In this document: positions 2,079-58,430 of the stretch, piece after piece | Layout of the letters: every line of letters starts with the position of its first letter | How positions within the stretch are numbered: the first letter of the stretch is position 1 | From: an uncultured Clostridia bacterium | GTDB lineage: Bacteria > Bacillota > Clostridia > Christensenellales > UBA1242 | Assembly (NCBI GenBank): GCA_934754495.1 | Contig: CAKVHW010000001.1 | Location: 136,462-200,461, forward strand | Length of the DNA: 64,000 nucleotides | Direction of reading: 5' to 3' | Program-made: the position numbers and the translations under genes | Notes under the pieces: generated by a model | Told to the model about the DNA's origin: nothing | Database searches by the model: none | Seen by the model: only the letters and a program-made list of their open reading frames with translations

Positions 2079-2771
2079 TTAATGCAACGGTTCAAGACGA
2101 GGTTTATTTCCACCACGTGGGTATTTATTAGATGTTGTTTGTTGCTTATTAAACACAACAATATATCTTTTACCGTATTCTTTAAGGTCAAATGTTAATA
2201 TATCAGATTGTTTCACGTGAAACATTCTAATAACATTCCTACAATCAAGTAGTTCTTGATTATAATTGTCGCCTTTATACATTACTATACTTCCGCCTAC
2301 CTTTGCAAAAGGAACCATATATTCTAGCAACGTATTCATAGAAGCAACCGCTCTTGCAACAATATAATCATACTTTTCACGATTATCTTTAGCATAATCT
2401 TCACATCTAGTATGATATGCAACAACATTTTGTAAGTTTAAAAGGTCAATTAATTGATTTAAAAAGTTAACCTTTTTGTTAACACTATCAATAAGAGTGA
2501 ATTTTAGGTCAGGTCTAAGTATGGCAAGTGGAACACTAGGAAAGCCAGCCCCAGCCCCAATATCAAGTATATTTGAATTACTTTTAAATACATCTGTAGG
2601 TAAAACACTGTCTAAAAAGTGTTTTATATATACTTCATTTTTTTCAGTAATGCCTGTAAGATTATACTTTTCATTTTCTTGAATTAAAAAATTAAAGTAT
2701 TTATCAAACATTTCGCATTGTAAATCAGAAAGTGAAATATTATATTCTTTAAATAATTCTTTTAAATCCAT
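2079..2771 (-). CDS. rsmG: 16S rRNA (guanine527-N7)-methyltransferase RsmG/GidB
   Basis: 230 aa with the SAM-binding motif LDIGAGAGFPSVPLAI. Canonical position next to mnmG. Confidence 0.92.
   Translation of the reverse strand: MDLKELFKEYNISLSDLQCEMFDKYFNFLIQENEKYNLTGITEKNEVYIKHFLDSVLPTDVFKSNSNILDIGAGAGFPSVPLAILRPDLKFTLIDSVNKKVNFLNQLIDLLNLQNVVAYHTRCEDYAKDNREKYDYIVARAVASMNTLLEYMVPFAKVGGSIVMYKGDNYNQELLDCRNVIRMFHVKQSDILTFDLKEYGKRYIVVFNKQQTTSNKYPRGGNKPRLEPLH
2209..2224. promoter_or_regulatory. parS site 3, inside the rsmG coding sequence
   Basis: Exact TGTTTCACGTGAAACA. Shares the flanks ATTG...CATTCT with site 1. Confidence 0.85.
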
Positions 2772-2815
2772 TTAACTCTCCTTATTGTAGATTAAGAAAG
2801 TACACATTTAGAAAA

Positions 2816-2831
2816 TGTTTCACGTGAAACA
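2816..2831. promoter_or_regulatory. parS site 4 (core inside a 26-bp perfect palindrome GAAAATGTTTCACGTGAAACATTTTC)
   Basis: Exact parS core in the rsmG-mnmG intergenic region. Confidence 0.9.
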
Positions 2832-3010
2832 TTTTCTTACATTGTTACATACTTAGACCATAACATATTTATATATCAATAAAAACAATCATATTTAATG
2901 AAATATAATAAAATATATATAATAAGTTTTATAATATATAAATTATATAAAACCCTATATAAAACAAAATCTTATAAACTCAAACAAGCTGTAATTATTA
3001 CATAAAAGCA

Positions 3011-4876
3011 TTAATTGACATGGTGCATCTTTAAAAATACAATCAATACAGATATATCTGCAGGACTTATACCAGAAATACGGCTGGCTTGACCAATGTT
3101 AAGAGGTTTAATTTTGTTAAGCTTTTGTTGAGCTTCTTTTCTTAATCCTTTTATATCATCAAAATTAATATCACTAGGAATTAACATGTTTTCTTGTTTA
3201 AGGCTTTGTTCTATCTGTTTTTCTTGTCTTACAAGATAGCCTTCATATTTTGCCATAATTTCAACTTGTTTTAAAACATCATTAGGATACTTCTTTAATT
3301 CATCAAAAATCTCGACTAAATCAGTCATATAAATACTATTACGTTTTAAGGCATCAAAAACACTAATACCAGTTGTAGGAAATACTTCATTTTTAGATAA
3401 CATAAGTTTTCCCAAATCGCTTTTTATACTAAATCTTTGTTCGCAAAATCTTTTTACTTCATTAATTTGTTTTAGTTTATTTTTATATTGATTGTATCGT
3501 TTTTTGTCAACAAGTCCATATTTTTTGCCAATTTCTGTTAGTCTAATGTCAGCATTGTCTTGTCTTAGCCATAATCTATACTCGGCACGGCTAGTCATCA
3601 TACGGTATGGTTCGTTGGTTCCTTTACTTACAAGATCGTCTATTAGCACACCAATATATGCTTCATTTCTCTTTAATACAAGTTGCTCTTTATTTAGCAC
3701 ATATTGTCCAGCATTGATACCAGCAATTATACCTTGTGCACCTGCTTCTTCATAACCACTTGTACCATTAATTTGACCAGCAAAGTATAAACCATTAATA
3801 AATTTACATTCCAAAGTTGGGTAAAGTTGGGTTGGGTCGATGGCATCATACTCAATTGCATAAGCATCACGCATAATTTTTGCATTTTCCAAGCCTTCTA
3901 CACTATGCACAATTTGTTGTTGAATGTCCACAGGCATACTTGTAGATAAACCTTGCACATACATTTCGTTTGTTGAAAGTGCTTCTGGCTCTAAAAACAA
4001 TTGATGACGGTCTTTATCAGAAAATCTTACAATTTTTGTTTCGATACTAGGGCAATATCGTGGGCCCTCACTCTTAATAATACCGCTATACATAGGCGCT
4101 TTATCAAGATTGTTAAGAATAATGTTTTTAGTATCAAGAGTTGTGTAGGTTAGCCAACAATCAGCAACATTTTTAGGTTCTTTTTTGGTCATAAATGAAA
4201 AACATTGAATACCATCTTCACCTTTTTGAATTTCAACCTTAGAATAATCTACCGTATTGTTGTAAATTCTTACTGGTGTACCTGTTTTGAATCTAACAAT
4301 TTTAAAACCAAGGTCAATAAGATTTTTGGTAAGATAATTTGCATTAGAAAAACCGTTTGGTCCTTCATTTTTTAGATATTCACCCACAATAATACGGCTA
4401 TTTAAGTATACACCTGTGCAAATAACAGCGGTTTTGCACACAAAAGTTTGACCTTGTGCGGTTTTTACAGCAGTTACACGACCATTTTCAACCACAATTT
4501 CACTTACTTCGGCTTGTTTTATATCCAAATTAGGTTGATTTTCAAGGGTTTGTTTCATGAAAGTGTGGTATTTAATTTTATCTGTTTGTGCTCTCAAACT
4601 TTGAACAGCTGGACCCTTACTACTATTTAACATACGGCGTTGAATTGTTGCTTTATCGGCATTAATTCCCATTTGACCACCTAGTGCATCAATTTCACAC
4701 ACTAAGTGACCCTTAGCAGTTCCGCCAATACTAGGATTGCACGCCAAAAAAGCAATGCTATCAAGATTTAGAGTTAATAGCACAGTTTTAATTCCTTTTC
4801 TAGCAAGTGCAAGGCAGGCTTCACAACCTGCATGACCGCTACCAATTACAACAGCATCATAATCTGTAATTATCAT
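3011..4876 (-). CDS. mnmG: tRNA uridine-5-carboxymethylaminomethyl modification enzyme MnmG/GidA
   Basis: FAD-binding motif DAVVIGSGHAGCEA and full-length GidA-like sequence. I place the start at MIITDYD (ATG at 4876, preceded by GAAGGA). The 11-codon extension in the ORF track would overlap mnmE. Confidence 0.93.
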   Translation of the reverse strand: MIITDYDAVVIGSGHAGCEACLALARKGIKTVLLTLNLDSIAFLACNPSIGGTAKGHLVCEIDALGGQMGINADKATIQRRMLNSSKGPAVQSLRAQTDKIKYHTFMKQTLENQPNLDIKQAEVSEIVVENGRVTAVKTAQGQTFVCKTAVICTGVYLNSRIIVGEYLKNEGPNGFSNANYLTKNLIDLGFKIVRFKTGTPVRIYNNTVDYSKVEIQKGEDGIQCFSFMTKKEPKNVADCWLTYTTLDTKNIILNNLDKAPMYSGIIKSEGPRYCPSIETKIVRFSDKDRHQLFLEPEALSTNEMYVQGLSTSMPVDIQQQIVHSVEGLENAKIMRDAYAIEYDAIDPTQLYPTLECKFINGLYFAGQINGTSGYEEAGAQGIIAGINAGQYVLNKEQLVLKRNEAYIGVLIDDLVSKGTNEPYRMMTSRAEYRLWLRQDNADIRLTEIGKKYGLVDKKRYNQYKNKLKQINEVKRFCEQRFSIKSDLGKLMLSKNEVFPTTGISVFDALKRNSIYMTDLVEIFDELKKYPNDVLKQVEIMAKYEGYLVRQEKQIEQSLKQENMLIPSDINFDDIKGLRKEAQQKLNKIKPLNIGQASRISGISPADISVLIVFLKMHHVN

Positions 4877-4895
4877 TATTTTCCTTCTTTTGTTT

Positions 4896-6251
4896 TTATT
4901 TTCCAACACAAAAATTCATAAAAATTGAATTTATAATTTCTTCATTGTTGGTTTCCCCAGTAATTTCACCAAGAACACTCCAAACATTGTAAATATCTAC
5001 AGCAACAAGTTCTAGTGATACATGATTATTAAGAGATTCAATAACATTTTTTAGACTTTCCAAAGCACGATCAAGTGCATTTATGTGACGAGTGTTGGTT
5101 ATTATTACACTTGAATTCATAATTTTTTCATCAATCATCATATCGAAAAGCTTTTGTTTAACATCATTAATTCCGTTTTTTAACAATGCAGATGTTTTAA
5201 TAATATTGTTGAATGGTAATTTTGATGTATCAAGTTTTTGGCCAAGGTCATTTTTATTAACAACCACCAAAACCTTTTTATCTTTAATAAGGTTAATAAT
5301 TTTTTGGTCGTCTTCAGATAATTCGCAACTCCCATCTAATATCAACAACACAATATCAGCCATATTAATTGCTTCAACAGACCTATCAACACCAATTTTT
5401 TCTACAGTGTCATCACTTTCTCTAATTCCTGCTGTATCTACAATTATAAACTTTACACCATTGTATGTGAAAGTTTCTTCCAAGGTATCACGAGTTGTAC
5501 CCTTAATATCTGTTACAATTGCACGGTTGTAGTTAAGTAGGGCATTCATAATGCTAGATTTTCCTACATTTGGCTTACCCAAAATTACAACACGACACCC
5601 ATTTTTAATTGTCATCCCTGTGTCTGCAGTTTTTCTAATATCTAAAATTTGTCCTTCTAATTTATGCATTCTAGTTAAAACTTCACTAGCAGTTATGTCT
5701 TCAATGTCATATTCTGGATAATCAAAATTAACATCAATAAAAGCAAGTGTGTCAGTTAGTTCTTTTTGAATTTTTGCAATCTCTCGTTGCAAGTTTCCCT
5801 GCAATAAGTTGTAACCGGCTTTAAGTTCGCTATCACTTTCAGCATTAATAATATCAATAACACCTTCAGCTTCATCAAGGCTTATTTTTTTATTTAAAAA
5901 CGCACGTTTTGTAAATTCACCTGCTTCAGCAAGTCTAACTCCGCTAGACATTATGGTTTTTAATATTAAATTAGTTATTGCAACACCGCCGTGGCATTGA
6001 AACTCAACCAAATCTTCACCAGTATAACTATTTGGTGCTTTAAAATAAACACAAAGACAGTGTTCACTAAAATCACCCAAATTAAATTTACCTAAATACA
6101 TATAACGTGGCTTAATATTATCTACACTAAAATTTTTGGCAGTAAAAAATTTGGAAACGACATTTAATGCATCGTCACCACTAACACGAATTATTGAAAT
6201 TCCGCCCACACCAATTGCTGTGGATATTGCACAAATTGTGTCTTGCGTCAT
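4896..6251 (-). CDS. mnmE: tRNA modification GTPase MnmE/TrmE
   Basis: 451 aa with G1 motif GKPNVGKSS, DTAGIR, NKND and the C-terminal CVGK motif. Confidence 0.95.
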   Translation of the reverse strand: MTQDTICAISTAIGVGGISIIRVSGDDALNVVSKFFTAKNFSVDNIKPRYMYLGKFNLGDFSEHCLCVYFKAPNSYTGEDLVEFQCHGGVAITNLILKTIMSSGVRLAEAGEFTKRAFLNKKISLDEAEGVIDIINAESDSELKAGYNLLQGNLQREIAKIQKELTDTLAFIDVNFDYPEYDIEDITASEVLTRMHKLEGQILDIRKTADTGMTIKNGCRVVILGKPNVGKSSIMNALLNYNRAIVTDIKGTTRDTLEETFTYNGVKFIIVDTAGIRESDDTVEKIGVDRSVEAINMADIVLLILDGSCELSEDDQKIINLIKDKKVLVVVNKNDLGQKLDTSKLPFNNIIKTSALLKNGINDVKQKLFDMMIDEKIMNSSVIITNTRHINALDRALESLKNVIESLNNHVSLELVAVDIYNVWSVLGEITGETNNEEIINSIFMNFCVGK

Positions 6252-6324
6252 ATTTGTACTTACCTTTTTTTATTATTTTTCGGCTACATTATATCACAAC
6301 AGTATTAATTTTAAAATAGTTTAT

Positions 6325-6353
6325 TAAAAAAAAATGCCAAATGGCATTTTTTT
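6325..6353. terminator. Bidirectional hairpin between jag and mnmE
   Basis: ATGCC-AAAT-GGCAT stem-loop flanked by an A-run and a T-run. Confidence 0.55.
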
Positions 6354-6413
6354 ATTGTCTTATTAAGTTATATTGCATTGAAATATTTTTAATTTTTTTA
6401 TAATTCATTAAAA

Positions 6414-7115
6414 CTATGCAATATAATCAATTACTAAAAATCTTGTTGGGTCAGTGCCTTCGCTGTGAGTCCCAATATGATTTTTGTTTTGAAGTGCATT
6501 GTGAATAATTTTACGTTCATAACGGTTCATAGGTTCTAGTTTCATGCTACGTTTGTTTTTAACAACTTTATCTGCAAGTCTTAAAGCCATATCAACAATT
6601 GTACTTTCTCTTTTAGCACGATAGTTTTCAATATCAACATAAACTTTACGTTCGTAATTTTTAAATTTATCACGAACAATAGTATTTAAAATGTATTGTA
6701 AAGAGTCTAGTGCATCACCATGATAACCAATTAAGCCACCCATATTTTCGCCAGTAACTCTTACGATAATATCTTTATCTTCTTCAGTTACTTCTAAGTG
6801 ATTTTCACCGCCATAAACTTTTAGTAAACCTTCCATAAAGTTTTTAACTTCTCCCATAACTTGTTTTGAAAGTTCGGCATCATAAGGAAGTTCACGTTTT
6901 GGTTCTGTTTTTACAACAGGTTTTACATTGCTTTCTTCGTATTCTTTTTTCTCGTCTTCGTTTTCAAACAATGTCATTTCAATTTTAAATTTCTTTAATG
7001 TTTTGTTTTCTTCTAACACTTTTATAGCAACTTTATCTTTTTCGGCTTCTAGTAACATAAGACCTTTTTCAATTGCTTTATCCAAACTTGTAGAACTAAC
7101 TTCAATTGTTCTCAT
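6414..7115 (-). CDS. jag: Jag/KhpB RNA-binding protein (Jag_N, KH and R3H domains)
   Basis: 233 aa with GYHGDALDSLQYI (KH-like) and ERKIIHNAL (R3H). Conserved position after yidC. Confidence 0.88.
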   Translation of the reverse strand: MRTIEVSSTSLDKAIEKGLMLLEAEKDKVAIKVLEENKTLKKFKIEMTLFENEDEKKEYEESNVKPVVKTEPKRELPYDAELSKQVMGEVKNFMEGLLKVYGGENHLEVTEEDKDIIVRVTGENMGGLIGYHGDALDSLQYILNTIVRDKFKNYERKVYVDIENYRAKRESTIVDMALRLADKVVKNKRSMKLEPMNRYERKIIHNALQNKNHIGTHSEGTDPTRFLVIDYIA

Positions 7116-7127
7116 AAAATTTTCTCC

Positions 7128-8174
7128 TTATCTTGAGTATTCAGGTTTATTGTTGTTTATCTTTTTTTGTGCTTTCTTTTCAAACCAACTATCAATAGCA
7201 AGTGTGATAAGTGGTGAAGTAATACACATAAACAATGAGCCTGTTAGAATGTAAATACCAAATGCGGCATTATAGAAAATCATAAATAATCCCATAACAA
7301 TAGGCATAATTATAGTCATTGCCTTGTTTTGAGCCATACTACTCATGTAAGGAAGACCTTTTTTCTTTGCTCTTGTTTTACTAACAACATCAGACAAATA
7401 CATACTTAAAAAACTAAGTCCTGCGTTTATAATTGCTAGCAAGAAATAACCGTTCCAGCCTTTATATTCTGCTTGAATAGGGTTCATAATTTTTTCGTAA
7501 TTTTCTTGGCTAATTTCTTCAGCACTAACTTTAGTTGTTTTTAAGAATGTGTTGTAAGATAGCGTAACTTTTCCGCTTGTATCTGGACGCCAAATATTTT
7601 TAATCCACAAAAATCCGTTTTTAATTTCACCATACTTCTTAACAACCGCATTTTGTGCTTGGGTTGTTGCATACTCGTCAATAGTAACACCATCAACAGG
7701 GTTAAGGGTATATTCTTCTTTTGCTGTAGTTTCAACAATAGTGTATGTCTCGTTTAGGGTAGTGTATTCTTGATACAACTTGTAAGCACTCATTTTGTTT
7801 AGGGTGCTAAATAATGTAAAGAACACAACCATTGTGATAACCATATAAGCAAGCATACCAAAACATGTACCATAGATATTAAAGTTGTTCTTTTTGTAAA
7901 GCTCATTTAATTTCTGGTTTTTCATGTTTGGGTTATTTGCATATAGTTTGTTTATTTTTTCAAGTTCTGGTCGCATTTCTAATTGCATTTGCATGTTCTT
8001 TTTAGAAACATATTTATTGTAAAAGTCAAAAGGCAACAACACAACTTTAATAAGTAAGGTCAAAACAATCAAAACAACGGCATAGTTTGCAATTCCGCCT
8101 TCAAGCCAGTTAATAAGTTTTGCCCAAAGTCCTGTTGGAGCAGTAATTTGCCCCAATACGCTTAAAAAATCCAT
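7128..8174 (-). CDS. yidC: Membrane protein insertase YidC/SpoIIIJ family
   Basis: 348 aa, multi-pass membrane protein with a basic C-terminal tail. Sits in the conserved rnpA-yidD-yidC-jag order. Confidence 0.85.
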   Translation of the reverse strand: MDFLSVLGQITAPTGLWAKLINWLEGGIANYAVVLIVLTLLIKVVLLPFDFYNKYVSKKNMQMQLEMRPELEKINKLYANNPNMKNQKLNELYKKNNFNIYGTCFGMLAYMVITMVVFFTLFSTLNKMSAYKLYQEYTTLNETYTIVETTAKEEYTLNPVDGVTIDEYATTQAQNAVVKKYGEIKNGFLWIKNIWRPDTSGKVTLSYNTFLKTTKVSAEEISQENYEKIMNPIQAEYKGWNGYFLLAIINAGLSFLSMYLSDVVSKTRAKKKGLPYMSSMAQNKAMTIIMPIVMGLFMIFYNAAFGIYILTGSLFMCITSPLITLAIDSWFEKKAQKKINNNKPEYSR

Positions 8175-8440
8175 TTCTTATCTCCTTTTAAATTGTATGG
8201 CACTAAATCAAGACCGCCCTTACTAAGCGGATTGCATCTAACAATTCGTCGTGTGCCCAGTATTATGCCTTTAATAACTCCCCATTCTTTAATGGCCTGT
8301 AGCATGTATGTACTACAACTTGGCTTAAACCTACAGTGGTTTCCGCTAAGTAATGGCGAGATACAGATTTTGTATAAATAAATTAATAAGTTGGCAATCA
8401 GTCTAAAAGGATAACCAACAATATATAGAAATTTATTCAT
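8162..8440 (-). CDS. yidD: Membrane protein insertion efficiency factor YidD
   Basis: 92 aa with ISPLLSGNHCRFKPSCSTYMLQAIKEWG, typical of YidD. Overlaps both rnpA and yidC. Confidence 0.9.
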   Translation of the reverse strand: MNKFLYIVGYPFRLIANLLIYLYKICISPLLSGNHCRFKPSCSTYMLQAIKEWGVIKGIILGTRRIVRCNPLSKGGLDLVPYNLKGDKKWIF

Positions 8441-8777
8441 TAATAATCATACCACTTTTTTTGTAAAGTCCCAACATTTCTGCATAAATTTCATTAAATG
8501 TTTTGTCGGTTATGCTAGGCTTAGCAACAATCACATAGTTAAACTTAGTATTAACCTGTGGCATAATAAGTTTAAATGATTCTCTTAACCTACGCTTAAT
8601 AAGGTTTCGGGTGTGAGCCTTACCAATCTTTTTAGACACACTAAACCCAACCTTATAACTTTTAGCTTTTACAGGAGTGTATAGTAAAACCATGTTGTCT
8701 CCACTTTTTGAAACACCATTTTTATAAATATAGCCAAACATTTTACGTTTAGTAAGTCTAAATTGTTTTTGTAGCAT
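8433..8777 (-). CDS. rnpA: Ribonuclease P protein component
   Basis: 114 aa, basic, with KKIGKAHTRNLIKRRLRE (RNR motif). Lies downstream of rpmH. Confidence 0.9.
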   Translation of the reverse strand: MLQKQFRLTKRKMFGYIYKNGVSKSGDNMVLLYTPVKAKSYKVGFSVSKKIGKAHTRNLIKRRLRESFKLIMPQVNTKFNYVIVAKPSITDKTFNEIYAEMLGLYKKSGMIINE

Positions 8778-8800
8778 AATAAATACCTTTTATTAAAAAT

Positions 8801-8830
8801 AAGTGCCTAACCATTTCTAATTAGACACTT
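8801..8830 (-). terminator. Hairpin between rpmH and rnpA (attenuator or partial terminator)
   Basis: AAGTGCCTAA...TTAGACACTT pairs at 9 of 10 positions. On the minus strand it is followed by a U-rich tract. Confidence 0.45.
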
Positions 8831-8841
8831 TTAAATTTTTA

Positions 8842-8985
8842 TTATTTGTTTGATGTTGCTAGTTTTTTTCTGCCACGGTTTCTTCTTCTTTTAATAACAT
8901 TTCTGCCACCAGTAGTTTTCATTCTTTGTCTAAAACCATGAACTTTAACTCTTTGTTTTTTCTTAGGTTGATAAGTTCTTTTCAT
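8842..8985 (-). CDS. rpmH: 50S ribosomal protein L34
   Basis: Too short for the ORF track. My translation is [47 protein letters not shown], 47 aa. Confidence 0.95.
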
Positions 8986-9053
8986 TTCTGCAATCCTTCC
9001 TTTTTGATATATTAAATAGTAAAAGTACTATTATTTAACTTAAAAGCGTTTTA

Positions 9054-9082
9054 ATTATAATTTATAAAACAACGTAAGTCAA
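9054..9082 (-). promoter_or_regulatory. Consensus sigma-A promoter for rpmH-rnpA
   Basis: On the minus strand: TTGACT (9082-9077), a 17-nt spacer, then TATAAT (9059-9054). Confidence 0.7.
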
Positions 9083-9104
9083 GACATTTTTTATTTTTTT
9101 TAAA

Positions 9105-10205
9105 CTATACAATTCTTACAGGCAATATTAAATATAAAAATTCGTCACTATCATTGCCAGTAATAATACATGGCGCAACACTTGATGAAAAACTTAATTT
9201 TAAAAATTCATCAGTTGTTACTCTTAATGCTTCGGTAAAGTATCTTGCATTAAATGCAATACTTAAGTCGTTACCTTTTAATGAAATGGTGATGTTTTCT
9301 TTAATGTCACCTAATTCACTTTTGCTTGATAACACCATAACACGGTCACTTATATCAAACTTAACAAGGTTGTTTTTATCTATTCTAGATAGTAGTGATG
9401 CTCTCTCTAAAGCATCGGCAAGTTGTTGTTTGTTTAAAATAAGTTCGGTGGTAAAATTGCTAGGAATTATTTGATTGTAATCAATATAATTACCGTCTAA
9501 CAAGCGAGTTGTAATTTTAGTGTTGTCAATATCAACCATTAAGTAGTTTTTTTGAATAAACACCTTAACAGGATTATCATTTTCTTCTAATAGTTTTGAA
9601 ATTTCATTTAAACTACGAGCAGGAACAATAACATTAAATTTACCAGTTGATTTTAAAATTGGTTTTTTAACAACAGCTAATCTATAACCATCTAGAGCAA
9701 TTGATTTTACAAAACCATCTGAAACTTCAAGTTTGCAACCTTTTAGTATTGGTCGTGTATCTTCTTGTGCTACACTAAATATTGACTTATTAATAAGATT
9801 TCTTAGGTCGTTTTGAGTAATTTCAAAATATTCGTTGTAATCAAGTTTTTTTACTTGTGGAAATTCTTGAGGGTTTAAACATTGAATTTTTCCTACACTA
9901 TCGGTGTATTTAATACTAAGCACATTGTTTTCGTTTAGGTTAAGTTCAATTTGTTCATTGCTAAGCTTTTTAATGTATTCATTAAATAGTTTACCAGGAA
10001 CAACTGTTTCACCTTCAAGTTTTACTTCAGCACGAATTGTTTTTTCAATACTAAGTTCTAGGTCGGTTGCTGTTAAAACCAAATTATCTTCTTCTGTAGA
10101 TAGTTTAATTCCTTCTAGTATTGGGTTTGTGGTTTTACTGCTAGTACCTTTAGATACTTTTAATAATGCATCACTAAGTTCTAATCCTTCGCAAACTATT
10201 TTCAT
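9105..10205 (-). CDS. dnaN: DNA polymerase III beta sliding clamp
   Basis: 366 aa with full-length DnaN-like sequence (MKIVCEGLELSDALLKVSKG...LILPVRIV). Confidence 0.95.
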   Translation of the reverse strand: MKIVCEGLELSDALLKVSKGTSSKTTNPILEGIKLSTEEDNLVLTATDLELSIEKTIRAEVKLEGETVVPGKLFNEYIKKLSNEQIELNLNENNVLSIKYTDSVGKIQCLNPQEFPQVKKLDYNEYFEITQNDLRNLINKSIFSVAQEDTRPILKGCKLEVSDGFVKSIALDGYRLAVVKKPILKSTGKFNVIVPARSLNEISKLLEENDNPVKVFIQKNYLMVDIDNTKITTRLLDGNYIDYNQIIPSNFTTELILNKQQLADALERASLLSRIDKNNLVKFDISDRVMVLSSKSELGDIKENITISLKGNDLSIAFNARYFTEALRVTTDEFLKLSFSSSVAPCIITGNDSDEFLYLILPVRIV

Positions 10206-10597
10206 AATACTTCTTCTCCTAATTTGTTATATTATATATTAAATAAAATTTATATTCAATAATATTTTAATCATTTTAAATAGAATTTTAATTTTTGGTT
10301 TATTTGACTTTTATTGGATTTATTTTTTGAGTTTTGTTTTAATTAGTCGAATTCCCCACCAATTTATTTATAAACATAATTAAATAATATTACTCATTAT
10401 ATACAATGTGAATATGTGTACAACTTTAAAAAACACAATATATAGTAAATTAAAATGCCTTTCTTTCGTAAACCATATACTATATGTTGTTTGTTTATAT
10501 GTGCACAACTAGTGTGTAAGTATGTACAACTTACTCACATCTCGTGGTTTACCATGTGTATAACTTTGTTTTTTTTTAATTTTTAACATTGCTTCAA
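10206..10597. other. Candidate oriC sub-region: AT-rich tract plus four same-orientation ATGTGYAYAACT motifs (DnaA-box-like)
   Basis: The dnaA-dnaN intergenic position matches the DUE-bearing half of bipartite Firmicute origins. Motifs lie at 10414-10425, 10499-10510, 10522-10531 and 10554-10565. TGTGTATAA (10555-10563) matches TGTGGATAA at 8 of 9 positions. Confidence 0.55.
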
Positions 10598-10863
10598 CCG
10601 TGCTCTAGCACCACAGAACCAACAGCAGTAAGTGAAATCACTACAGTTGGTTGACAATGCCGTGCGCTAGCACCACAGAACTCACTGAAGTGAATAAAAT
10701 TACTATGGTGTGTTGATAGAAAGCGTGACAACGCCCGGAACCAACTATGGCAGATATAACAACTATGGCTTGCTGATAAGAAGTGCGACAGCACCCAGAA
10801 CCCACTAAATTAAGTTATAATCACTATAGTGTGTTGATAAAGCCGTGCGCTAGCACCTAGGAG
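10598..10863 (+). repeat. Tandem array 1 of a GC-rich ~59-64-bp repeat (about 4.3 units)
   Basis: Unit starts at 10598, 10660, 10724, 10784 and 10843. Unit layout is a head CCGTGCGCTAGCAC, then CAGAACC, then two ACTAYRG heptads about 18-20 nt apart, then a tail GGTTGATAGAG. The last partial unit overlaps the dnaA stop codon. Confidence 0.9.
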
Positions 10864-12197
10864 TTTTGACACATGGATTTAATATCACTAACAATAACCT
10901 TAATACGGTTGTTTTCCTTAATTTTTTCAGAAATTTTTTCACGAGCATGAATAACAGTTGTGTGGTCTTTCTTTCCAAAAATAGAACCAATAGAAGTAAG
11001 TGGAAGGTCAAGTAAATCACACATTATATACATGCTAATTTGACGTGGCTCAACAATCTCTTTGTTTTTCTTTTTACCAAGTAAATCTTCTTTGGAAATA
11101 GAAAAATATTTGCAAACACAATCAATAATTTTGTCACTGTTTAAAGATAACTTGTTGCTGCTAACATGGTCTTTTAAAGCTTCGGTTACATCTTCCATAG
11201 TAGCAGTGGTTTTGCCTAATAATTTAGCAATAAACCAAACTTTTGCAAGTATACCTTCAATTTCACGAATGTTGGTGTCGCAGTTTTCGGCAATGTAGTT
11301 AACAACTTCGTCATCAATGCTGTAATTTTCTTCTTGAATTTTCTTTTTTAGAATTGCAAGACGTGTTTCAAAATCAGGTGATTGAACATCTTGAATAAGC
11401 CCCATACTCATACGAGTTTTAAGACGTTCTTCTAAAGTTTCAATCTCTTTTGGTGGACGGTCAGAAGCAATAATAATTTGCTTGTTTGATTGATATAAAT
11501 CATTAAAAGTGTGAAAAAATTGCTCTTGTGTAGAAGTTTTTTTACTGATAAATTGAATATCATCAACCATTAATACATCAAGATTGCGGTACTTCTCTCT
11601 AAACTTAGAATTAGCATAATCTTTACCACTTGTAAGGCTTGCAATGTAATCGTTTGTAAAGTTTTCACAAGTTACATACATAACCTTTAATTTAGGAAAA
11701 TTCTTCCTAATGTAATTGCCAATTGCATGAAGTAAATGGGTTTTTCCTAGCCCAGACCCACCATAGATAAATAATGGGTTTATTTTACCTGTCGGATTTT
11801 CAGCAACCCCACGTGCAGCGGCATATACAAACTTGTTGCTGTTTCCTACAACATAGTTGTCAAAAGTATATTTTTCTTGAAATTTGCAAAGGTCAAGGTT
11901 TTCTTCCGCTTGTGGTTCGGTAGGCTTACTTTCAAATTCTTTTACTTCGTCTGGATCCAACACTTCAAAATTTTCAATTAAAGGGTTAATTTCCTTTAAT
12001 GCAAAATTAATTTGTGTAGAATGTAACTTTTTTACACGTGTTTTTGCGGTTTCGCTTGTGGCACTTAAATAAAAAACACCATCTCTAAAATCAATAGGTT
12101 CTAGTGTTTTTATCCACAAATCAAACGATACAGCAGTCACTTCCTTTTCAAGTGTTTCTAATGCTTTGTCCCATGTTTCTTTAATTCCCAACATCAC
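10857..12197 (-). CDS. dnaA: Chromosomal replication initiator protein DnaA
   Basis: 446 aa with Walker A GGSGLGKTHLL, VDDIQF, and the C-terminal DNA-binding region DHTTVIHA. Confidence 0.97.
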   Translation of the reverse strand: MMLGIKETWDKALETLEKEVTAVSFDLWIKTLEPIDFRDGVFYLSATSETAKTRVKKLHSTQINFALKEINPLIENFEVLDPDEVKEFESKPTEPQAEENLDLCKFQEKYTFDNYVVGNSNKFVYAAARGVAENPTGKINPLFIYGGSGLGKTHLLHAIGNYIRKNFPKLKVMYVTCENFTNDYIASLTSGKDYANSKFREKYRNLDVLMVDDIQFISKKTSTQEQFFHTFNDLYQSNKQIIIASDRPPKEIETLEERLKTRMSMGLIQDVQSPDFETRLAILKKKIQEENYSIDDEVVNYIAENCDTNIREIEGILAKVWFIAKLLGKTTATMEDVTEALKDHVSSNKLSLNSDKIIDCVCKYFSISKEDLLGKKKNKEIVEPRQISMYIMCDLLDLPLTSIGSIFGKKDHTTVIHAREKISEKIKENNRIKVIVSDIKSMCQNS

Positions 12198-12348
12198 TTC
12201 ATCTCCGTATAAAAATGTGTCTTAATTTTCTCGACACTTCTAATAATAATATAGTACCAAATAAATTCCCAAAAGTAAACAAAAAATAAAAACAAACACT
12301 CCAAAATGCTTGTTTTTCTATTATCTTTTAGGTTTTTAAATATATAAA

Positions 12349-12987
12349 TTATTGTATTTTACTTATCCAGTTTTCTAGTACTTTTAATAAAGTTTTGTAA
12401 TGCTCAAAATTTTCCTTTTTGTTGGTTATGTCGCACCTTATTTCAATCTGTATCGTCCAAATATCACAAAATTCGTTTTTTAACGACCCGCTAATTGTTT
12501 TGTCGCCACCAGAAAATGGCTCGTCGATAAAAACGTTAAACCCACTAGCCATAAGGCTGGTGTTTAAGTTGTTAAACAACTCAATGTTGTTTGATACGTT
12601 TTTTCCACCACTTATGCCAAGGTTTATTTCGCACTCTCGGGTTTCGGCAAGTCCGTGTAAATCAATTATGTATTTTATTTTGTCCGCACGAATTAGTTCT
12701 TTAATTGAATCCTTGTAACTGCTTTGCTCGTCGTAATTAGCATCGTCGTTGTTGTTTTTGGTTTTCGCAATAAAAAAACTTCCCGTTTGCTTTTGTAAAT
12801 ATAAACCAGTGGTCACAGACCCTGGTTCATACACCTTTGATTTACCGTTTCTAGTTTGTTCGACCCCGTGCGGTGCGGAAACTAATACGTTGTTGTTTCC
12901 CGTAATAACAACGTGGTCAAGATTTGCGTTGTCGTTAAGAAAAACGTCCCTTTCGACCACTAATTTTTCAAATGTGATTTTTTTCAT
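12349..12987 (-). CDS. Hypothetical protein, N-formylglutamate amidohydrolase (FGase)-like zinc hydrolase fold
   Basis: 212 aa. The pattern VLVSAPHGVEQTR...EPGSVTT...IIDLHGL resembles the H/E/H metal-ligand pattern of the FGase superfamily. Assignment is by motif only. Confidence 0.45.
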   Translation of the reverse strand: MKKITFEKLVVERDVFLNDNANLDHVVITGNNNVLVSAPHGVEQTRNGKSKVYEPGSVTTGLYLQKQTGSFFIAKTKNNNDDANYDEQSSYKDSIKELIRADKIKYIIDLHGLAETRECEINLGISGGKNVSNNIELFNNLNTSLMASGFNVFIDEPFSGGDKTISGSLKNEFCDIWTIQIEIRCDITNKKENFEHYKTLLKVLENWISKIQ

Positions 12988-13008
12988 TTTTTGCCTTTTT
13001 ATTTAAAT

Positions 13009-13034
13009 AAAACCGCTTTAAATGTTGCGGTTTT
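13009..13034 (-). terminator. Hairpin downstream of recF
   Basis: AAAACCGC...GCGGTTTT stem with flanking T/A runs. Confidence 0.5.
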
Positions 13035-13046
13035 ACATTATTATTT

Positions 13047-14162
13047 TTATTTTAAATTGTTTAGTTCTGATTGTAACTCACTTTCAATAATTTTACCATT
13101 CTCAACAGTAAACTTGTCGCATGGAAACCTAAAATCAAAATCAGTGCAAGTAATAATTGTTTGAATGTTTTGTATTTTTTCCAACAACTTTAACTGTCTT
13201 GAGCCGTCAAGTTCGCTTAACACATCGTCTAGTAGCAACACTGGGTACTCGCCAAGGCGGTCTTTAAATACATCAAGTTCGCCCAATTTTAGTGATAATG
13301 CAACAGTTCGTTGTTGACCTTGCGACCCAAAATGACGCACGTCAATGCCGTTTACGGTTATTTTAAGGTCGTCACGATGTGGTCCAACACTTGTGTAACC
13401 TAATTGCATGTCTTTTTCAAGTGTTTTTTCGTACTCAATCATAAGCATTTTTTTAATAGTCTTTTCGTCATCGGCAGTAAAACCAACATAACTAAGGTCA
13501 AGGGTTTCTTTGCTGTCTGTAAGGTATTTTTGTGCGTAGTTGCAATACACCTTTAACTTTTCAATAAGTTTCATTCTGTCGGCTATTATTTTAGCCCCAA
13601 CAGTGGCAAGTTGGTCATTCCAAATAGAAATGGTTTCTGATAAGGCATTCTTATTTAAACTGGTTTTTAATAGTTTGTTTCGTTGAACCAAAATTTGATT
13701 ATATTTGTTAAGGTTATAAAAATAATTTTTATCGAATTGACAAAGGTCAATATCCATAAACTTCCTACGTTGGTCAGGGCTATCTTTCACAAGTTTTAGT
13801 TCGTCTGGCGAAAAGTATATCGCGTTTAAATTGCCCATAAGTTCGCCCATTTTTTTAATGGCAAGCGAATTTATTTTGATTGTTTTGTTTTGGTCTTCAA
13901 ATATAAAAACCTCAATTTTTTTCTGCGATTTATCTCGCACAAGTTCTAGGGTGACTTTTGCAAAACTACTACGCCACTTAATAAGTTCTTTGTCTTTGGC
14001 TGTGCGTGGACTTTTTCCAATTGCACACATAAAAATACCCTCTAATATATTGGTCTTTCCTTGTGCGTTTTTTCCAATCAAAACGTTAATGTTTGGACCA
14101 AATGTAATTAGTTGGTTGTCGTAATTTCTAAAATTTCTAAGTTCTATTGATTTAATATACAT
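13047..14162 (-). CDS. recF: DNA replication and repair protein RecF
   Basis: 371 aa with Walker A GKNAQGKTNILEGI, signature SQGQQRT and Walker B LLLDDVLSELD. Confidence 0.95.
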   Translation of the reverse strand: MYIKSIELRNFRNYDNQLITFGPNINVLIGKNAQGKTNILEGIFMCAIGKSPRTAKDKELIKWRSSFAKVTLELVRDKSQKKIEVFIFEDQNKTIKINSLAIKKMGELMGNLNAIYFSPDELKLVKDSPDQRRKFMDIDLCQFDKNYFYNLNKYNQILVQRNKLLKTSLNKNALSETISIWNDQLATVGAKIIADRMKLIEKLKVYCNYAQKYLTDSKETLDLSYVGFTADDEKTIKKMLMIEYEKTLEKDMQLGYTSVGPHRDDLKITVNGIDVRHFGSQGQQRTVALSLKLGELDVFKDRLGEYPVLLLDDVLSELDGSRQLKLLEKIQNIQTIITCTDFDFRFPCDKFTVENGKIIESELQSELNNLK

Positions 14163-14270
14163 TACTTTTACCTAAATATTCCCTATAAAATATTATACCA
14201 TATTTTGCGGTGCTTTCAAAATATTTTTATAGATAACATTTTTAATTTAACACCGCTTTTAAATATGTAA

Positions 14271-14449
14271 ATGAAGCAATGTTATAACACAACCACTACA
14301 GTAGGCTGATAGAGAGTGTGTCAACACCCAGAACCCGCTACAGTGAATATAATCACTACAGCCGGCTGACAATGCCGTGCGCTAGCACACAGGACTCATT
14401 ATCGTAAATATACTAACTTTGGCTGGTTGATAGAGCCGTGCGCCAGCAC
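14271..14449 (+). repeat. Tandem array 2 of the same GC-rich repeat (about 3 units), in the recF-gyrB divergent intergenic region
   Basis: Unit starts near 14271 (partial), 14317, 14375 and 14436 (partial). The 22-mer TGACAATGCCGTGCGCTAGCAC at 14367-14388 is identical to 10652-10673 and is in the same orientation. Confidence 0.9.
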
Positions 14450-14522
14450 TATATATAATATAATTTATATATTATTTTATAAAAATTATTTGTTATATAA
14501 TAAATTTTATGTTATTATATAA

Positions 14523-16481
<1,959 letters not shown>

Positions 16482-16493
16482 GGAGTGTAGGCA

Positions 16494-19076
16494 ATGGATA
16501 AAAAAGATATTGACGAAATTTTAGAAAAAAATGATAATTCAAAAATTATAGACGTTAAGGTTAAGGAAGAACTTGAAAAATCATTTATTGCCTATGCAAT
16601 GGCGGTTAATGTTAGCCGTGCTATTCCTGATGTTAGAGATGGTTTAAAACCTGTTCATCGTAGAATTTTGTATTCCATGAACGAACTTGGACTTACTCCA
16701 GATAAACCTTACAAAAAATGTGCTACTATTGTCGGTGATGTTCTTGGTAAATACCATCCACACGGCGATAGTTCGGTATACGATGCATTAGTTAGACTTG
16801 CTCAAGACTTCTCTATTAACTTACCACTTGTAGACGGTCATGGAAACTTTGGTAGTGTAGATGGTGATAGTCCAGCGGCTTACCGTTATACTGAAGCCCG
16901 CATGAGTAAACTTGCTATTGAAATGCTTAGAGAAATAGATAAAGAAACAGTAGATTTTTACCCTAACTTTGATGATACTCTAATGCAACCAGTTGTGCTT
17001 CCTTCACGTTTTCCAAACTTGCTTGTTAATGGTAGTGACGGTATCGCCGTAGGTATGGCAACCAATATTCCACCACACAACTTAGCAGAAGTTATTGACG
17101 GTGTAATAGCACTTATTGACAATAAAGATATAGATATTGACGAATTGTGTAAAATTATACCTGGCCCAGACTTCCCTACACGTGCACTTATTCTTGGTAG
17201 AAAAGGTATTAAAGATATGTACCGCACAGGCCGTGGCTCATTCTATATTCGTAGCCGTGCCGAAATTGAAGATTATGCTAATGGCACTCGCCAACGTATT
17301 GTAATCTCCGAAATTCCTTACCAAGTAAACAAAGCAAAACTTATTATTCAAATTGCCGATTTAGTAAAAGCAAAACGTATTGAAGGCATTAGTGATATTA
17401 AGGAAGAAAGCGACCGTGAAGGTATGCGTATTGTAATTGAAGTTAAGAAAGATGCAAACGCACAAGTTGTTCTTAATACACTATACAAACACACCCAACT
17501 TCAAATAAGTTTTGGTGCAATCATGCTTGCACTTGTTGATGGTGTTCCTAAAATTTTAAACCTTAAAGAAATTCTTACACACTATTTGAATTTTCAAAAA
17601 GATGTTATTGTAAGACGTACTAAATACGATCTTGATAAGGCAGAACAAAAAGCACACATTTTGCAAGGTTTAGTAATTGCTCAAGCAAATATTGACGAAG
17701 TAATTCGTACCATCAAACTTTCTGATGATAAAAACGATGCTATTGCAAAACTTATTAAATTATTTGAACTTACCGAAAAACAAGCAACCGCAATTCTTGA
17801 TATGAGACTTCAACGTCTTACTGGTCTAGAAGTTGAAAAACTAAAACAAGACCTTGTTAGCACTGAGAACGCTATTAGAGAATTTAAAGAAATTTTGGCA
17901 AGCGAAGAAAAAGTATTGTTAATAATTAAACACGACCTTACCGAAATTAAAGAAACCTATGGTGTTCCACGTAAGAGCGAAATTAGTTTTGATTATAGCG
18001 AAATTGATGTTGCTGACCTTATTAAAAAGGAAAATGTTGTTGTTACACTTACTCACGGTGGCTATATTAAACGTATGCCAGTTAGCGAATACAAGGCACA
18101 ACATCGTGGCGGTATGGGTGTAAGTGCTCATAAGACTAAAGAAGAAGACTTTGTAGAAAGCATTTATGTTACTTCTACTCATGACGAACTATTCTGCTTT
18201 AGTAATAAGGGTAAAGTTTACACAATGAAAGCATACGAAATTCCTGAAGCACAAAAACAAGCCAAAGGCAGAGCATTTGTAAACTTACTTCAACTAGACC
18301 AAGACGAACGTATCACAACAATTATTCCAATTGCTGATAAATCAAATGGTTATTTGGTTATGAGTACTAAGTATGGTTTGATTAAAAAGACCAAACTTGA
18401 AGAATTTGAAAGTATACGTAAAAACGGGAAAATTGCCATAAAGCTTAACGAAAATGACGAATTGATTAGCGTTTATGTCACAAACGGCAATAATGAGATA
18501 ATTATGGCAAGTAGTTCTGGTAAGTGTATTAGGTTTAACGAGAAGTATGTAAGAGTACTTGGTCGTGAAGCAATGGGTGTTAAATCTATTAGACTTGAAG
18601 AAGGCGAATATATTGTTGATATGGCTGTTGTTAACCCAGACCTTAAGATGCTTACAATTAGTGAATATGGTTATGGTAAACGTAGCAATCCAGACGACTA
18701 CCGTGTACAAGGCCGTAACGGAAAAGGTATCAAGGCTGGTATCTTTAACGAACAAACTGGCGGTCTTGTAAATTTAAAACAAGTATCAGATACTGACGAC
18801 ATTATGATTATTTGTGATGACGGTCAAATTATTAGAATTAAAGCAAGTGAAATTAATGTTATTGGTAGAAATACCAAAGGTGTTAAAATTATGAAAATGC
18901 GTAACAATGGTAAGATTATTGCTGTTGCTATCACACCTAGCGAGGAAGAAGAACAAAACATGGCTGAAAACATGGAAGAAGGTGTTGTAGAAGATGTACT
19001 TCCAGACGACCTACCAGATGATATGCCAGAACCTACTCCAAACCTTGCTCAAGAAGACGATAGTTTGCTTGACTAA
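16494..19076 (+). CDS. gyrA: DNA gyrase subunit A
   Basis: 860 aa with the active-site region AAYRYTEARM and the QRDR-type YHPHGDSSVYDALVRLAQ. Acidic C-terminal tail. Confidence 0.97.
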   Translation: MDKKDIDEILEKNDNSKIIDVKVKEELEKSFIAYAMAVNVSRAIPDVRDGLKPVHRRILYSMNELGLTPDKPYKKCATIVGDVLGKYHPHGDSSVYDALVRLAQDFSINLPLVDGHGNFGSVDGDSPAAYRYTEARMSKLAIEMLREIDKETVDFYPNFDDTLMQPVVLPSRFPNLLVNGSDGIAVGMATNIPPHNLAEVIDGVIALIDNKDIDIDELCKIIPGPDFPTRALILGRKGIKDMYRTGRGSFYIRSRAEIEDYANGTRQRIVISEIPYQVNKAKLIIQIADLVKAKRIEGISDIKEESDREGMRIVIEVKKDANAQVVLNTLYKHTQLQISFGAIMLALVDGVPKILNLKEILTHYLNFQKDVIVRRTKYDLDKAEQKAHILQGLVIAQANIDEVIRTIKLSDDKNDAIAKLIKLFELTEKQATAILDMRLQRLTGLEVEKLKQDLVSTENAIREFKEILASEEKVLLIIKHDLTEIKETYGVPRKSEISFDYSEIDVADLIKKENVVVTLTHGGYIKRMPVSEYKAQHRGGMGVSAHKTKEEDFVESIYVTSTHDELFCFSNKGKVYTMKAYEIPEAQKQAKGRAFVNLLQLDQDERITTIIPIADKSNGYLVMSTKYGLIKKTKLEEFESIRKNGKIAIKLNENDELISVYVTNGNNEIIMASSSGKCIRFNEKYVRVLGREAMGVKSIRLEEGEYIVDMAVVNPDLKMLTISEYGYGKRSNPDDYRVQGRNGKGIKAGIFNEQTGGLVNLKQVSDTDDIMIICDDGQIIRIKASEINVIGRNTKGVKIMKMRNNGKIIAVAITPSEEEEQNMAENMEEGVVEDVLPDDLPDDMPEPTPNLAQEDDSLLD

Positions 19077-39345: not shown

Positions 39346-39379
39346 CTTTTTTAGTCCTTTTTCGTAAAAACCAAACAAA

Positions 39380-39408
39380 ATTCTACATAAATTACCAAGT
39401 CGTGTCAA
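39380..39408 (-). promoter_or_regulatory. Sigma-A promoter for the surface-protein gene
   Basis: On the minus strand: TTGACA (39408-39403), a 17-nt spacer, then TAGAAT (39385-39380). Confidence 0.6.
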
Positions 39409-39423
39409 GTTTAATTTGCACAA

Positions 39424-39686: not shown

Positions 39687-39761
39687 GCTCCCATAGTGAA
39701 GTGGATATCACAATGGTCTTCGGAACCATTATGGAGGGTTCGAGTCCTTCTGGGAGCGCCA
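39687..39761 (+). tRNA. tRNA-Arg (anticodon TCG), with encoded CCA
   Basis: Folded by hand. Acceptor GCTCCCA/TGGGAGC, D stem GTGA/TCAC, anticodon stem ATGGT/ACCAT with loop CTTCGGA, T arm GAGGG-TTCGAGT-CCTTC. Confidence 0.85.
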
Positions 39762-39821: not shown

Positions 39822-39868
39822 TAAAAAACAACCGACTATACTCATAAAAATTTAGTCGGTTGTTTTTT
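39822..39868. terminator. Bidirectional terminator (tRNA-Arg on plus, M64 gene on minus)
   Basis: AACAACCGACT...AGTCGGTTGTT flanked by an A-run and a T-run. Confidence 0.8.
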
Positions 39869-58383: not shown

Positions 58384-58430
58384 AAAAAAAATAAGACATT
58401 CTATAAGCAGAGTAGAATGTCTTATTTTAT
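58384..58430. terminator. Bidirectional terminator after hsdR
   Basis: 14-bp stem AATAAGACATTCTA / TAGAATGTCTTATT flanked by an A-run and a T-run. Confidence 0.85.

Follow-up and report, generated by a model that had tools for sequence, protein, structure and literature searches.

Tandem GC-rich units in the dnaA-dnaN spacer

The 64-kb stretch of DNA analysed here, referred to below as the window, comes from an uncultured Clostridia lineage and covers its chromosomal origin region. Its GC content is 31% and its genetic code is the standard one, and the closest named match to its DnaA, at 65% identity, is a Christensenellales metagenome-assembled genome (MAG). The genes recF, dnaA and dnaN lie on the minus strand, together with rpmH, rnpA, yidD, yidC, jag, mnmE, mnmG and rsmG; gyrB and gyrA lie on the plus strand from position 14553, divergent from recF, and the cumulative G-C skew reaches its minimum at ~13-14 kb. 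Two spacers of this region, namely those between dnaA and dnaN and between recF and gyrB, each contain a tandem array of GC-rich units, referred to as array 1 and array 2. We consider it likely, with a probability of about 0.75, that these units represent a lineage-specific, hairpin-forming interspersed repeat, which in this uncultured gut Clostridia species occupies two or more intergenic spacers and forms a variable-number tandem repeat (VNTR) at each locus.

Array 1 (10598-10856) lies in the 651-bp dnaA-dnaN spacer and comprises four units of 60-62 bp and a solo 14-nt head. On the plus strand, the heads read CCGTGCTCTAGCAC at 10598 and CCGTGCGCTAGCAC at 10660 and 10843, with variants at 10724 and 10783, and delimit units of 62, 61, 60 and 62 bp and the terminal solo head. 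Read in the sense of the genes, i.e., on the minus strand, units a to d follow one another with lengths of 62, 60, 61 and 62 nt (10856-10612), and the solo head comes last (10611-10598). The spacer opens right at the dnaA stop (TCC TAG/GTGCTAGCGCACGG..., with a slash at the boundary), and the G of the stop codon TAG continues the unit consensus (...CTAG/GTGC). Past the solo head, the minus strand continues with TTGAAGCAATGTTAAAAATT and, after ~20 nt further, reaches the first DnaA box, ~40 bp from the end of the array.

A tandem GC-rich array had been proposed at this position in an initial annotation made from the sequence alone, and it is real. At up to 3 mismatches, the 14-mer head occurs six times in the window versus 0.51 times expected, a count that none of 100 shuffles reached, and the GC content of the array is 0.46, compared with 0.12-0.22 in the AT-rich part of the spacer. 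Of the four units, Tandem Repeats Finder called just the initial pair, which are the most alike (10598-10716; period 62, 77% matches, score 147), because the units have diverged to a mean column identity of 78%. A promoter and terminator scan of 10150-10950 revealed nothing above shuffles and no terminator, and neither a tRNA nor a tmRNA was found near array 1.

Structure and folding of the units

The repeat was characterized from an alignment of 40 distinct units from 13 conspecific sequences, in 62 columns. On the strand of dnaA, dnaN and recF, a unit consists of a 14-nt head (GTGCTAGCGCACGG), a linker (YWTTRTCARC), an imperfect hairpin of ~15 bp and a tail (GGTTCTRG), and the ~47 nt between heads are homologous among units; each array closes with an additional head. 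Columns 1-12 form a mini-hairpin, with a 4-bp stem and a tetraloop, which is 95.6% paired and includes two covarying pairs; double-sided switches from U-A to C-G are seen in six of the 40 distinct units, and from C-G to U-A in nine. The resulting head variants are GTGC-TAGC-GCAC, GTGC-TGTC-GCAC, GCGT-TGTC-ACGC and GTGT-TGAC-ACAC. Columns 22-58 have the potential to form a 15-bp hairpin that is 79% paired, with Watson-Crick pairs in 64% of the cells and four pairs altered on both sides; in unit d, for example, it reads AACCAAC.GUAGUGA...UUACUGC.GUUGGUU, G-U pairs included. Taken as a whole, the unit structure is 82.8% paired, versus 25-52% after the 3' partners are slid by 1-3 columns. The compensatory changes that the initial annotation had pointed out are thus borne out, both in the mini-hairpin and in several pairs of the long hairpin.

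In many units the long hairpin has decayed: it is lost in type b, which has a direct repeat instead, and partly lost in types a and c. Type b is the unit (10735-10794) that had been singled out earlier as departing from the fold, and rightly so, as it carries a direct and not an inverted repeat; the exact 9-mer AACTATGGC, placed at 10743 and 10761 in this unit, was also read correctly. The ACTAYRG heptads, proposed as a feature of the units in general, are present here and are just loosely repeated elsewhere.

The two strands differ in their folding. When compared with shuffled sequences, the gene-sense strand gives z = -2.0 and -2.3, and the opposite strand z = -0.8 and -0.2. Similarly, the long hairpin is 79% paired on the gene-sense strand versus 72.5% on the other, with 90 G-U cells in sense versus 49 in antisense. 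RNAalifold, applied to the 40 distinct units, did not return a meaningful consensus structure. At the gathering threshold, Rfam models identify only three tRNAs in the window, and at E <= 10 nothing relevant over 10200-11000.

The unit tails were also considered as DnaA boxes and rejected, their matches to TTATNCACA being not above chance; matches of at least 8/9 to TTATCCACA occur 31 times in the window. The copy that had been put forward as the best, TGTTGATAA at 10832-10840, is correctly located and does match at 8/9 positions, a resemblance at chance level.

A second array and a shared 13-mer

Array 2 is not mentioned in the initial annotation. It spans 14285-14449 in the divergent recF/gyrB spacer, 3.5 kb from array 1 and in the same orientation, and consists of two full units and a truncated third, which is joined to a flanking 13-mer through a deletion. 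A covariance model of the 40 distinct units, run with filters off, detects the two arrays and no other credible match in the window. The coordinates of all units and of the surrounding features are listed in Table 1.

The 13-mer, TAACATTGCTTCA, is found on the downstream (dnaN or recF) side of both arrays, in opposite orientations relative to the units. There are exactly two exact copies in the window, and the sequence is missing at both sites in the sister species described below. Possible readings are a scar left by recombination or a module at the end of the element.

A hairpin-forming module of ~129-142 bp (minimum free energy -29 kcal/mol) was observed after array 2 in L030 (6455-6596), and also in L031, L032, L034, L036 and L037. 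The module is deleted in the window (at ~14285) and in L033, L035, L039 and L040, where the truncated unit is fused to the 13-mer, and it was seen nowhere else in the DNA compared.

Table 1. Coordinates of the repeat units and surrounding features in the window
Feature	Position	Strand	Details
dnaN	9105-10205	-	
DnaA-box cluster of oriC, in the dnaA-dnaN spacer	10368-10563		Boxes include TGTGTATAA, TGTGCACAA and TGTGTACAA; outside the repeat
13-mer TAACATTGCTTCA, dnaN-side border of array 1	10584-10596	+	
Array 1, terminal solo head GTGCTAGAGCACGG	10598-10611	-	From head search and conspecific alignment
Array 1, unit d	10612-10673	-	Head GTGC-TAGC-GCAC; well-formed 15-bp hairpin; covariance model 75.1 bits
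Array 1, unit c	10674-10734	-	Head GCGT-TGTC-ACGC, a compensatory stem variant; covariance model 69.6 bits
Array 1, unit b (unit 3 of the initial annotation)	10735-10794	-	Head GTGC-TGTC-GCAC; direct repeat of GCCATAGTTG (x2) replaces the long hairpin; 69.8 bits
Array 1, unit a (first after the dnaA stop)	10795-10856	-	Head hairpin GTGC-TAGC-GCAC, GG, linker CTTTATCAAC, weak long hairpin; covariance model 72.9 bits
dnaA stop codon TAG	10857-10859	-	Abuts the first head
dnaA	10857-12197	-	
212-aa open reading frame	12349-12987	-	Between recF and dnaA
recF	13047-14162	-	
Inverted copy of the 13-mer TAACATTGCTTCA, bordering array 2	14272-14284	-	
Array 2, truncated unit 3	14285-14327	-	Head GTGT-TGAC-ACAC and half of the hairpin; covariance model 27.8 bits
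Array 2, unit 2	14328-14388	-	10 consecutive pairs (GCUGUAGUGA/UCACUGUAGC), best-formed hairpin of all units; 80 bits
Array 2, unit 1	14389-14449	-	Covariance model 59 bits

Variation among strains and absence from relatives

Conspecific assemblies, including NCBI GCA_964317905.1, were identified as those with DnaN and RnpA identical to the proteins of the window; for the window species, the DNA read comprised the 64 kb plus flanks of ~10 kb. Both array loci are fixed in the species, and the number of units differs by strain. The dnaA-dnaN spacer measures 466, 588, 649-651 or 709 bp, which corresponds to 1, 3, 4 or 5 units, and in all conspecifics array 1 starts at the dnaA stop codon and ends in a solo head. 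The recF-gyrB spacer, in turn, measures 330-551 bp and contains one to three full units. The units are also mosaics of one another; e.g., unit 2 of L030 consists of a type b 5' half and a type c 3' half, joined at CCATAGT.

Among strains with four units, the identity of the array is 85.9% on average (minimum 74%), versus 98.1% in the rest of the spacer, which holds the DnaA boxes and the unwinding region, and 98.0% in dnaA; the region of the DnaA-box cluster is 98% conserved between strains. That is, the array has diverged between strains about 7 times as much as the adjacent oriC DNA (14% versus 2%).

The repeat breaks short-read assemblies at the origin. In L032, a run of N at ~9500-9600 lies exactly over the position of array 1.

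In the sister species (four assemblies, L001-L004; DnaA 92% identical), the gene order is the same and the dnaA-dnaN spacer measures 385 bp. There, dnaA ends in TCC TAA, and the array is replaced by 47 nt of unrelated sequence, after which comes the same first DnaA box; no unit is found at the dnaA-dnaN or the recF-gyrB site. In species at 74% DnaA identity, the dnaA-dnaN spacers measure 212 and 292 bp, without a unit match at the orthologous sites. The variation in copy number by strain and the lack of the array in the sister species together suggest a species-specific interspersed repeat, and not a built-in part of the origin. We conclude that oriC does not include the element as a conserved component, and that this lineage acquired it recently.

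The element in another species

A degenerate 21-mer pattern, GAYARWGCCGTGCGCYAGCAC, which combines tail and head, was scanned in four collections. In genome_contigs (185,579 species representatives), 15 stretches match; 14 are chance matches in high-GC or coding DNA, and only one, L006, is real. All 10 matches in metagenome_contigs (JGI metagenomes) are due to chance, with 51-66% GC, and viral_contigs has none. Searches of plasmids and phages with the array (blastn), and of a protein database with the 66-aa spurious open reading frame (ORF) that spans it, the latter for arrays miscalled as genes, gave no match.

L006 derives from the mouse-gut MAG MGBC117996 and contains two heads, 61 nt apart, in the sense orientation of pheS. 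The first head is followed by the same CATTGTC linker, resulting in an identity of 21 nt with the window (GTGCTAGCGCACGGCATTGTC). The heads sit between the terminator (T-tract) of a T-box leader (RF00230, 98 bits; L006 1026-1248, minus strand; further coordinates 901-1010) and the ribosome-binding site of pheS, and a second assembly of the same species shows the same arrangement with loop and stem changed. Upstream of pheS, the element is missing in species that share 88%, 84% and 68% PheS identity with L006; in the relatives at 88% and 84%, the terminator runs straight into the ribosome-binding site. The location of the repeat between terminator and ribosome-binding site indicates that the element tolerates, or exploits, a position in a 5' untranslated region (UTR).

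An interspersed repeat as the most probable interpretation

The tandem structure, the hairpin potential with compensatory changes, the copy-number polymorphism, the mosaic units, the absence from sister taxa and the presence at a non-orthologous locus elsewhere are all established. The initial annotation had offered three possible roles, namely an iteron-like array controlling oriC, a structured RNA and a mobile repeat; the last of these is the best supported, by the second array 3.5 kb away and by the copy in the pheS leader of another species. Such arrays would grow and shrink by replication slippage and by unequal recombination between the near-identical heads. Spread to new sites may involve recombination, or else an enzyme that acts in trans and recognises the conserved head and linker, such as a recombinase or a single-strand transposase. 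The array would be dispensable for origin function, and its place between the dnaA stop and the DnaA boxes would reflect a tolerance of insertions there. If the element has an effect, RNA is the most likely route: mRNA decay or read-through could be altered by stable hairpins, located in the 3' UTR of dnaA or in the dnaN, recF and pheS leaders. REP, BOX and STAR elements are reported to act on mRNA decay or read-through through RNA hairpins.

Several observations weigh against an interspersed repeat. Only two loci are found in 64 kb, both within 4 kb of oriC and of the GC-skew minimum, and the 21-mer matched a single locus in one other genome among the 185,579 species representatives, so that the term interspersed rests on three loci in two species. 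The window contains no transposase, RAYT, Y1-transposase domain or other mobilising gene, and neither terminal inverted repeats nor target duplications were recognised. Moreover, the orientation relative to the downstream gene (dnaN, recF, pheS) is the same at all three loci, and the better folding in the gene sense could mean that an RNA role has been selected, rather than neutrality. If the two arrays proved to be the sole copies in the genome, an origin-linked role would deserve a second look.

The element was also compared with known classes of mobile repeat. In regard to a miniature inverted-repeat transposable element, the one-unit allele of L043 has a 14-bp head at either end, the two being direct and not inverted repeats, and the left junctions (CCTA/G, TATATA/ and TTTTTTT/) have no common duplication. 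In regard to REP/RAYT systems, palindromic hairpins are present, all units are direct, and the Y1-transposase domain is the one already noted as missing from the window.

Alternative explanations

Could the array instead be a functional structured RNA, in the dnaA 3' UTR and in the dnaN, recF and pheS leaders, whose hairpins regulate mRNA stability, read-through or downstream translation, and whose copy number tunes the effect? The compensatory changes are consistent with this notion, and so is the strand bias: the minus strand folds better than shuffled sequence and the plus strand does not, and G-U cells are more numerous in sense than in antisense. The absence of an intrinsic terminator between dnaA and the array makes read-through transcription plausible, and STAR repeats, with a conserved RNA stem-loop, functionalise a 3' UTR. 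At each of the three loci, the units also point the same way with respect to the downstream gene, although three out of three would be expected by chance with a probability of 0.25. Against such an RNA, RNAalifold finds no consensus structure, just 64% of the long-hairpin cells are Watson-Crick, the units of type b and, in part, those of types a and c lack the hairpin, no Rfam model matches even at E <= 10, and the sister species manage without the array. On balance, we consider this explanation unlikely. What stands of the structured RNA suggested in the initial annotation is that the hairpins are real and that the gene-sense strand folds somewhat better; a consensus structure and an Rfam match, on the other hand, are missing.

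Some observations would suit a role at the origin itself. Array 1 adjoins the DnaA-box cluster, the dnaA-recF block at the GC-skew minimum has an array on either side, the linker sequence TTATCAACA matches a DnaA box at 8/9 positions, and the 21 nt of head and linker are identical in two species, as might be expected of a protein recognition site. Nevertheless, it seems highly improbable that initiation at oriC is modulated by proteins binding to the array as an origin-associated site, be it iteron-like, a set of weak, DnaA-titrating boxes, or a target of a nucleoid or partition protein. Sister species and more distant relatives with an otherwise alike oriC lack the array; its copy number ranges from 1 to 5, with 86% identity between strains, beside an oriC that is 98% conserved; and another species bears the element in a pheS leader. 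As for the linker, DnaA-box matches at 8/9 occur about once per 2 kb in this AT-rich window, the mismatch of TTATCAACA falls in the CACA half, which is kept by all local bona fide boxes, and the units of array 2 and L006 are still poorer matches. No rep-like gene is present in the window, only the chromosomal dnaA. The iteron-like array controlling oriC must be given up on the very ground that the initial annotation had named for its refutation, i.e., a lack of conservation, as it is absent from the sister species and from the relatives at 74% DnaA identity. Very unlikely, too, is that the two arrays are the sole copies in the genome and that the origin has recruited them, as GC-rich, hairpin- or cruciform-forming sequences bracketing the recF-dnaA block, to act as a rheostat or insulator that varies by strain and tunes the read-through from dnaA into oriC/dnaN, or local supercoiling and unwinding, with the number of units setting the initiation frequency; in that case, a protein or RNA partner would bind at the conserved 21-nt head. 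Lastly, the ~61-bp period is CRISPR-like, and in L006 and L052 two 25-nt conserved heads have 36 nt between them that are unlike the window units. In the window species, however, the sequences between heads are mutually homologous and shared across loci, not unique spacers, the heads vary with compensatory changes, no cas gene or domain is found in the 64-kb window, and viral contigs and phage records contain no match. A degenerate or orphan CRISPR-like array is therefore scarcely credible and has already been effectively refuted, in agreement with the initial annotation, which had set CRISPR aside.

Comparison with known repeats

In architecture and dynamics, the closest analogue of the repeat described here is the STAR element of Staphylococcus aureus. 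STAR elements consist of a 14-nt GC-rich direct repeat, in an AT-rich genome, and a recurring spacer of at least 40 nt with a covarying stem-loop; they are intergenic, about half of them in UTRs or small RNAs, their arrays expand and contract, and their loci are stable within a species and differ between related species (PMC3532100; bioRxiv 10.1101/2023.05.16.541063). Their consensus is T(G/A/T)TGTTG(G/T)GGCCC(C/A) (PMC3532100). One S. aureus genome has ~100 spacer-STAR copies, compared with 2 loci in 64 kb here. In the present case, likewise, the heads are separated by ~47 nt of homologous sequence and the 15-bp hairpin is 79% paired, with double-sided changes in some pairs; the number of units ranges over 1-5 in array 1 and over one to three full units in array 2, and the orthologous sites are empty in the sister species and in the relatives at 74% DnaA identity. 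In contrast to STAR, however, the head (GTGCTAGCGCACGG, or CCGTGCGCTAGCAC on the plus strand) is itself a mini-hairpin, without similarity to the STAR motif, and the host is an uncultured gut Clostridia lineage. Given this lack of sequence similarity, the element is an analogue, not a member of the STAR family.

Other repeats are similar in part. The BOX element of Streptococcus pneumoniae is reportedly organized as boxA-boxB(n)-boxC (said to have been described by Martin et al. in 1992). It, too, is a modular intergenic repeat with variable internal units of ~45-60 bp, distinct terminal modules and a strong hairpin potential, and in UTR sites it can affect the expression of neighbouring genes; there is no sequence similarity, though, and the terminal module here is a solo head plus ~13-20 nt. 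The MIRU/VNTR loci of Mycobacterium tuberculosis, reportedly described by Supply et al. in 1997, resemble the arrays in their tandem units of 40-100 bp in operon spacers, abutting or overlapping the flanking stop and start codons, and in a polymorphic copy number that is usable for typing, as with MIRU typing in PMC3294723; MIRUs, however, are not hairpin-dominated, belong to a GC-rich genome and have no sequence similarity to the element. Iterons were rejected as a class: they would be expected as repeats of ~17-22 bp in fixed number, conserved and with a cognate rep gene, whereas the period here is 60-62 bp, the number is variable and the array is absent in relatives.

REP elements usually occur as inverted pairs, in hundreds of copies, and a RAYT gene is flanked by REPs. 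Like REP/BIME sequences, the units are short, extragenic, imperfect palindromes clustered in intergenic DNA, with compensatory changes in the stems, and REPs can stabilise the upstream mRNA; the units here, by contrast, are all direct, and no RAYT is seen in the window. Lastly, IS6110 is inserted in the dnaA-dnaN spacer of M. tuberculosis Beijing strains (PMC3294723). This provides a precedent for a dnaA-dnaN/oriC spacer that tolerates lineage-specific mobile DNA while origin function is retained (PMC3294723), even though IS6110 is an autonomous insertion sequence of ~1.4 kb and the element studied here is a short, non-coding tandem repeat.

These results remove a tempting but wrong annotation, namely that of a regulatory part of oriC; instead, what lies in the dnaA-dnaN spacer of this gut Clostridia species is a VNTR that evolves fast. 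Both loci might be used to type strains in metagenomes, and they explain assembly gaps at the origin. The element is also an independent, non-staphylococcal case of the STAR-type architecture, in which an AT-rich genome carries a GC-rich head followed by a structured spacer, and comparing it with STAR could help to find the common features of such elements. If, alternatively, the arrays proved to be origin-specific, they would constitute a natural allelic series for the effects of oriC-adjacent DNA on initiation.

Origin region and neighbouring genes

The oriC boxes at 10415-10563 are mostly TTGTNCACA or TTATACACA variants (TGTGTACAA, TGTGCACAA, TGTGTATAA), not perfect TTATCCACA boxes; one perfect DnaA box is kept in the sister species. 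The gene order at the origin (2079-19076), recF-(ORF)-dnaA-dnaN-rpmH-rnpA-yidD-yidC-jag-mnmE-mnmG-rsmG on one strand, is unusual for Firmicutes; rpmH lies downstream of dnaN, and gyrB-gyrA diverges from recF. This order is common to the sister species and to the relatives at 74% DnaA identity.

For the 212-aa ORF (12349-12987, minus strand), the sole Pfam match is sub-threshold, to N-formylglutamate amidohydrolase. The ORF is found in most conspecific strains and is missing from L030, L040 and the sister species; its presence in some strains and absence from others amounts to a presence/absence polymorphism beside the origin.

Further genes on the minus strand include one at 48344-50974, which may be an anti-phage defence gene of the Avs type and whose 876-aa product has an NB-ARC (STAND NTPase) domain, and, at 58430-63949, a type I restriction-modification operon with hsdR (987 aa), hsdS (433 aa) and hsdM (425 aa). 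Neither HsdS nor HsdM is matched exactly in the protein collection, suggesting a specificity peculiar to the strain. Two very large, probable surface proteins are encoded at 39895-43347 and 36733-39423, also on the minus strand, one with M64 peptidase, DUF6273 and InlB B-repeat domains and the other with BspA-type leucine-rich repeats. Between a tRNA-Arg gene (39687-39761) and the 3' end of the first of these surface-protein genes, a weak match to the unit model at 39830-39862 is probably a terminator hairpin.

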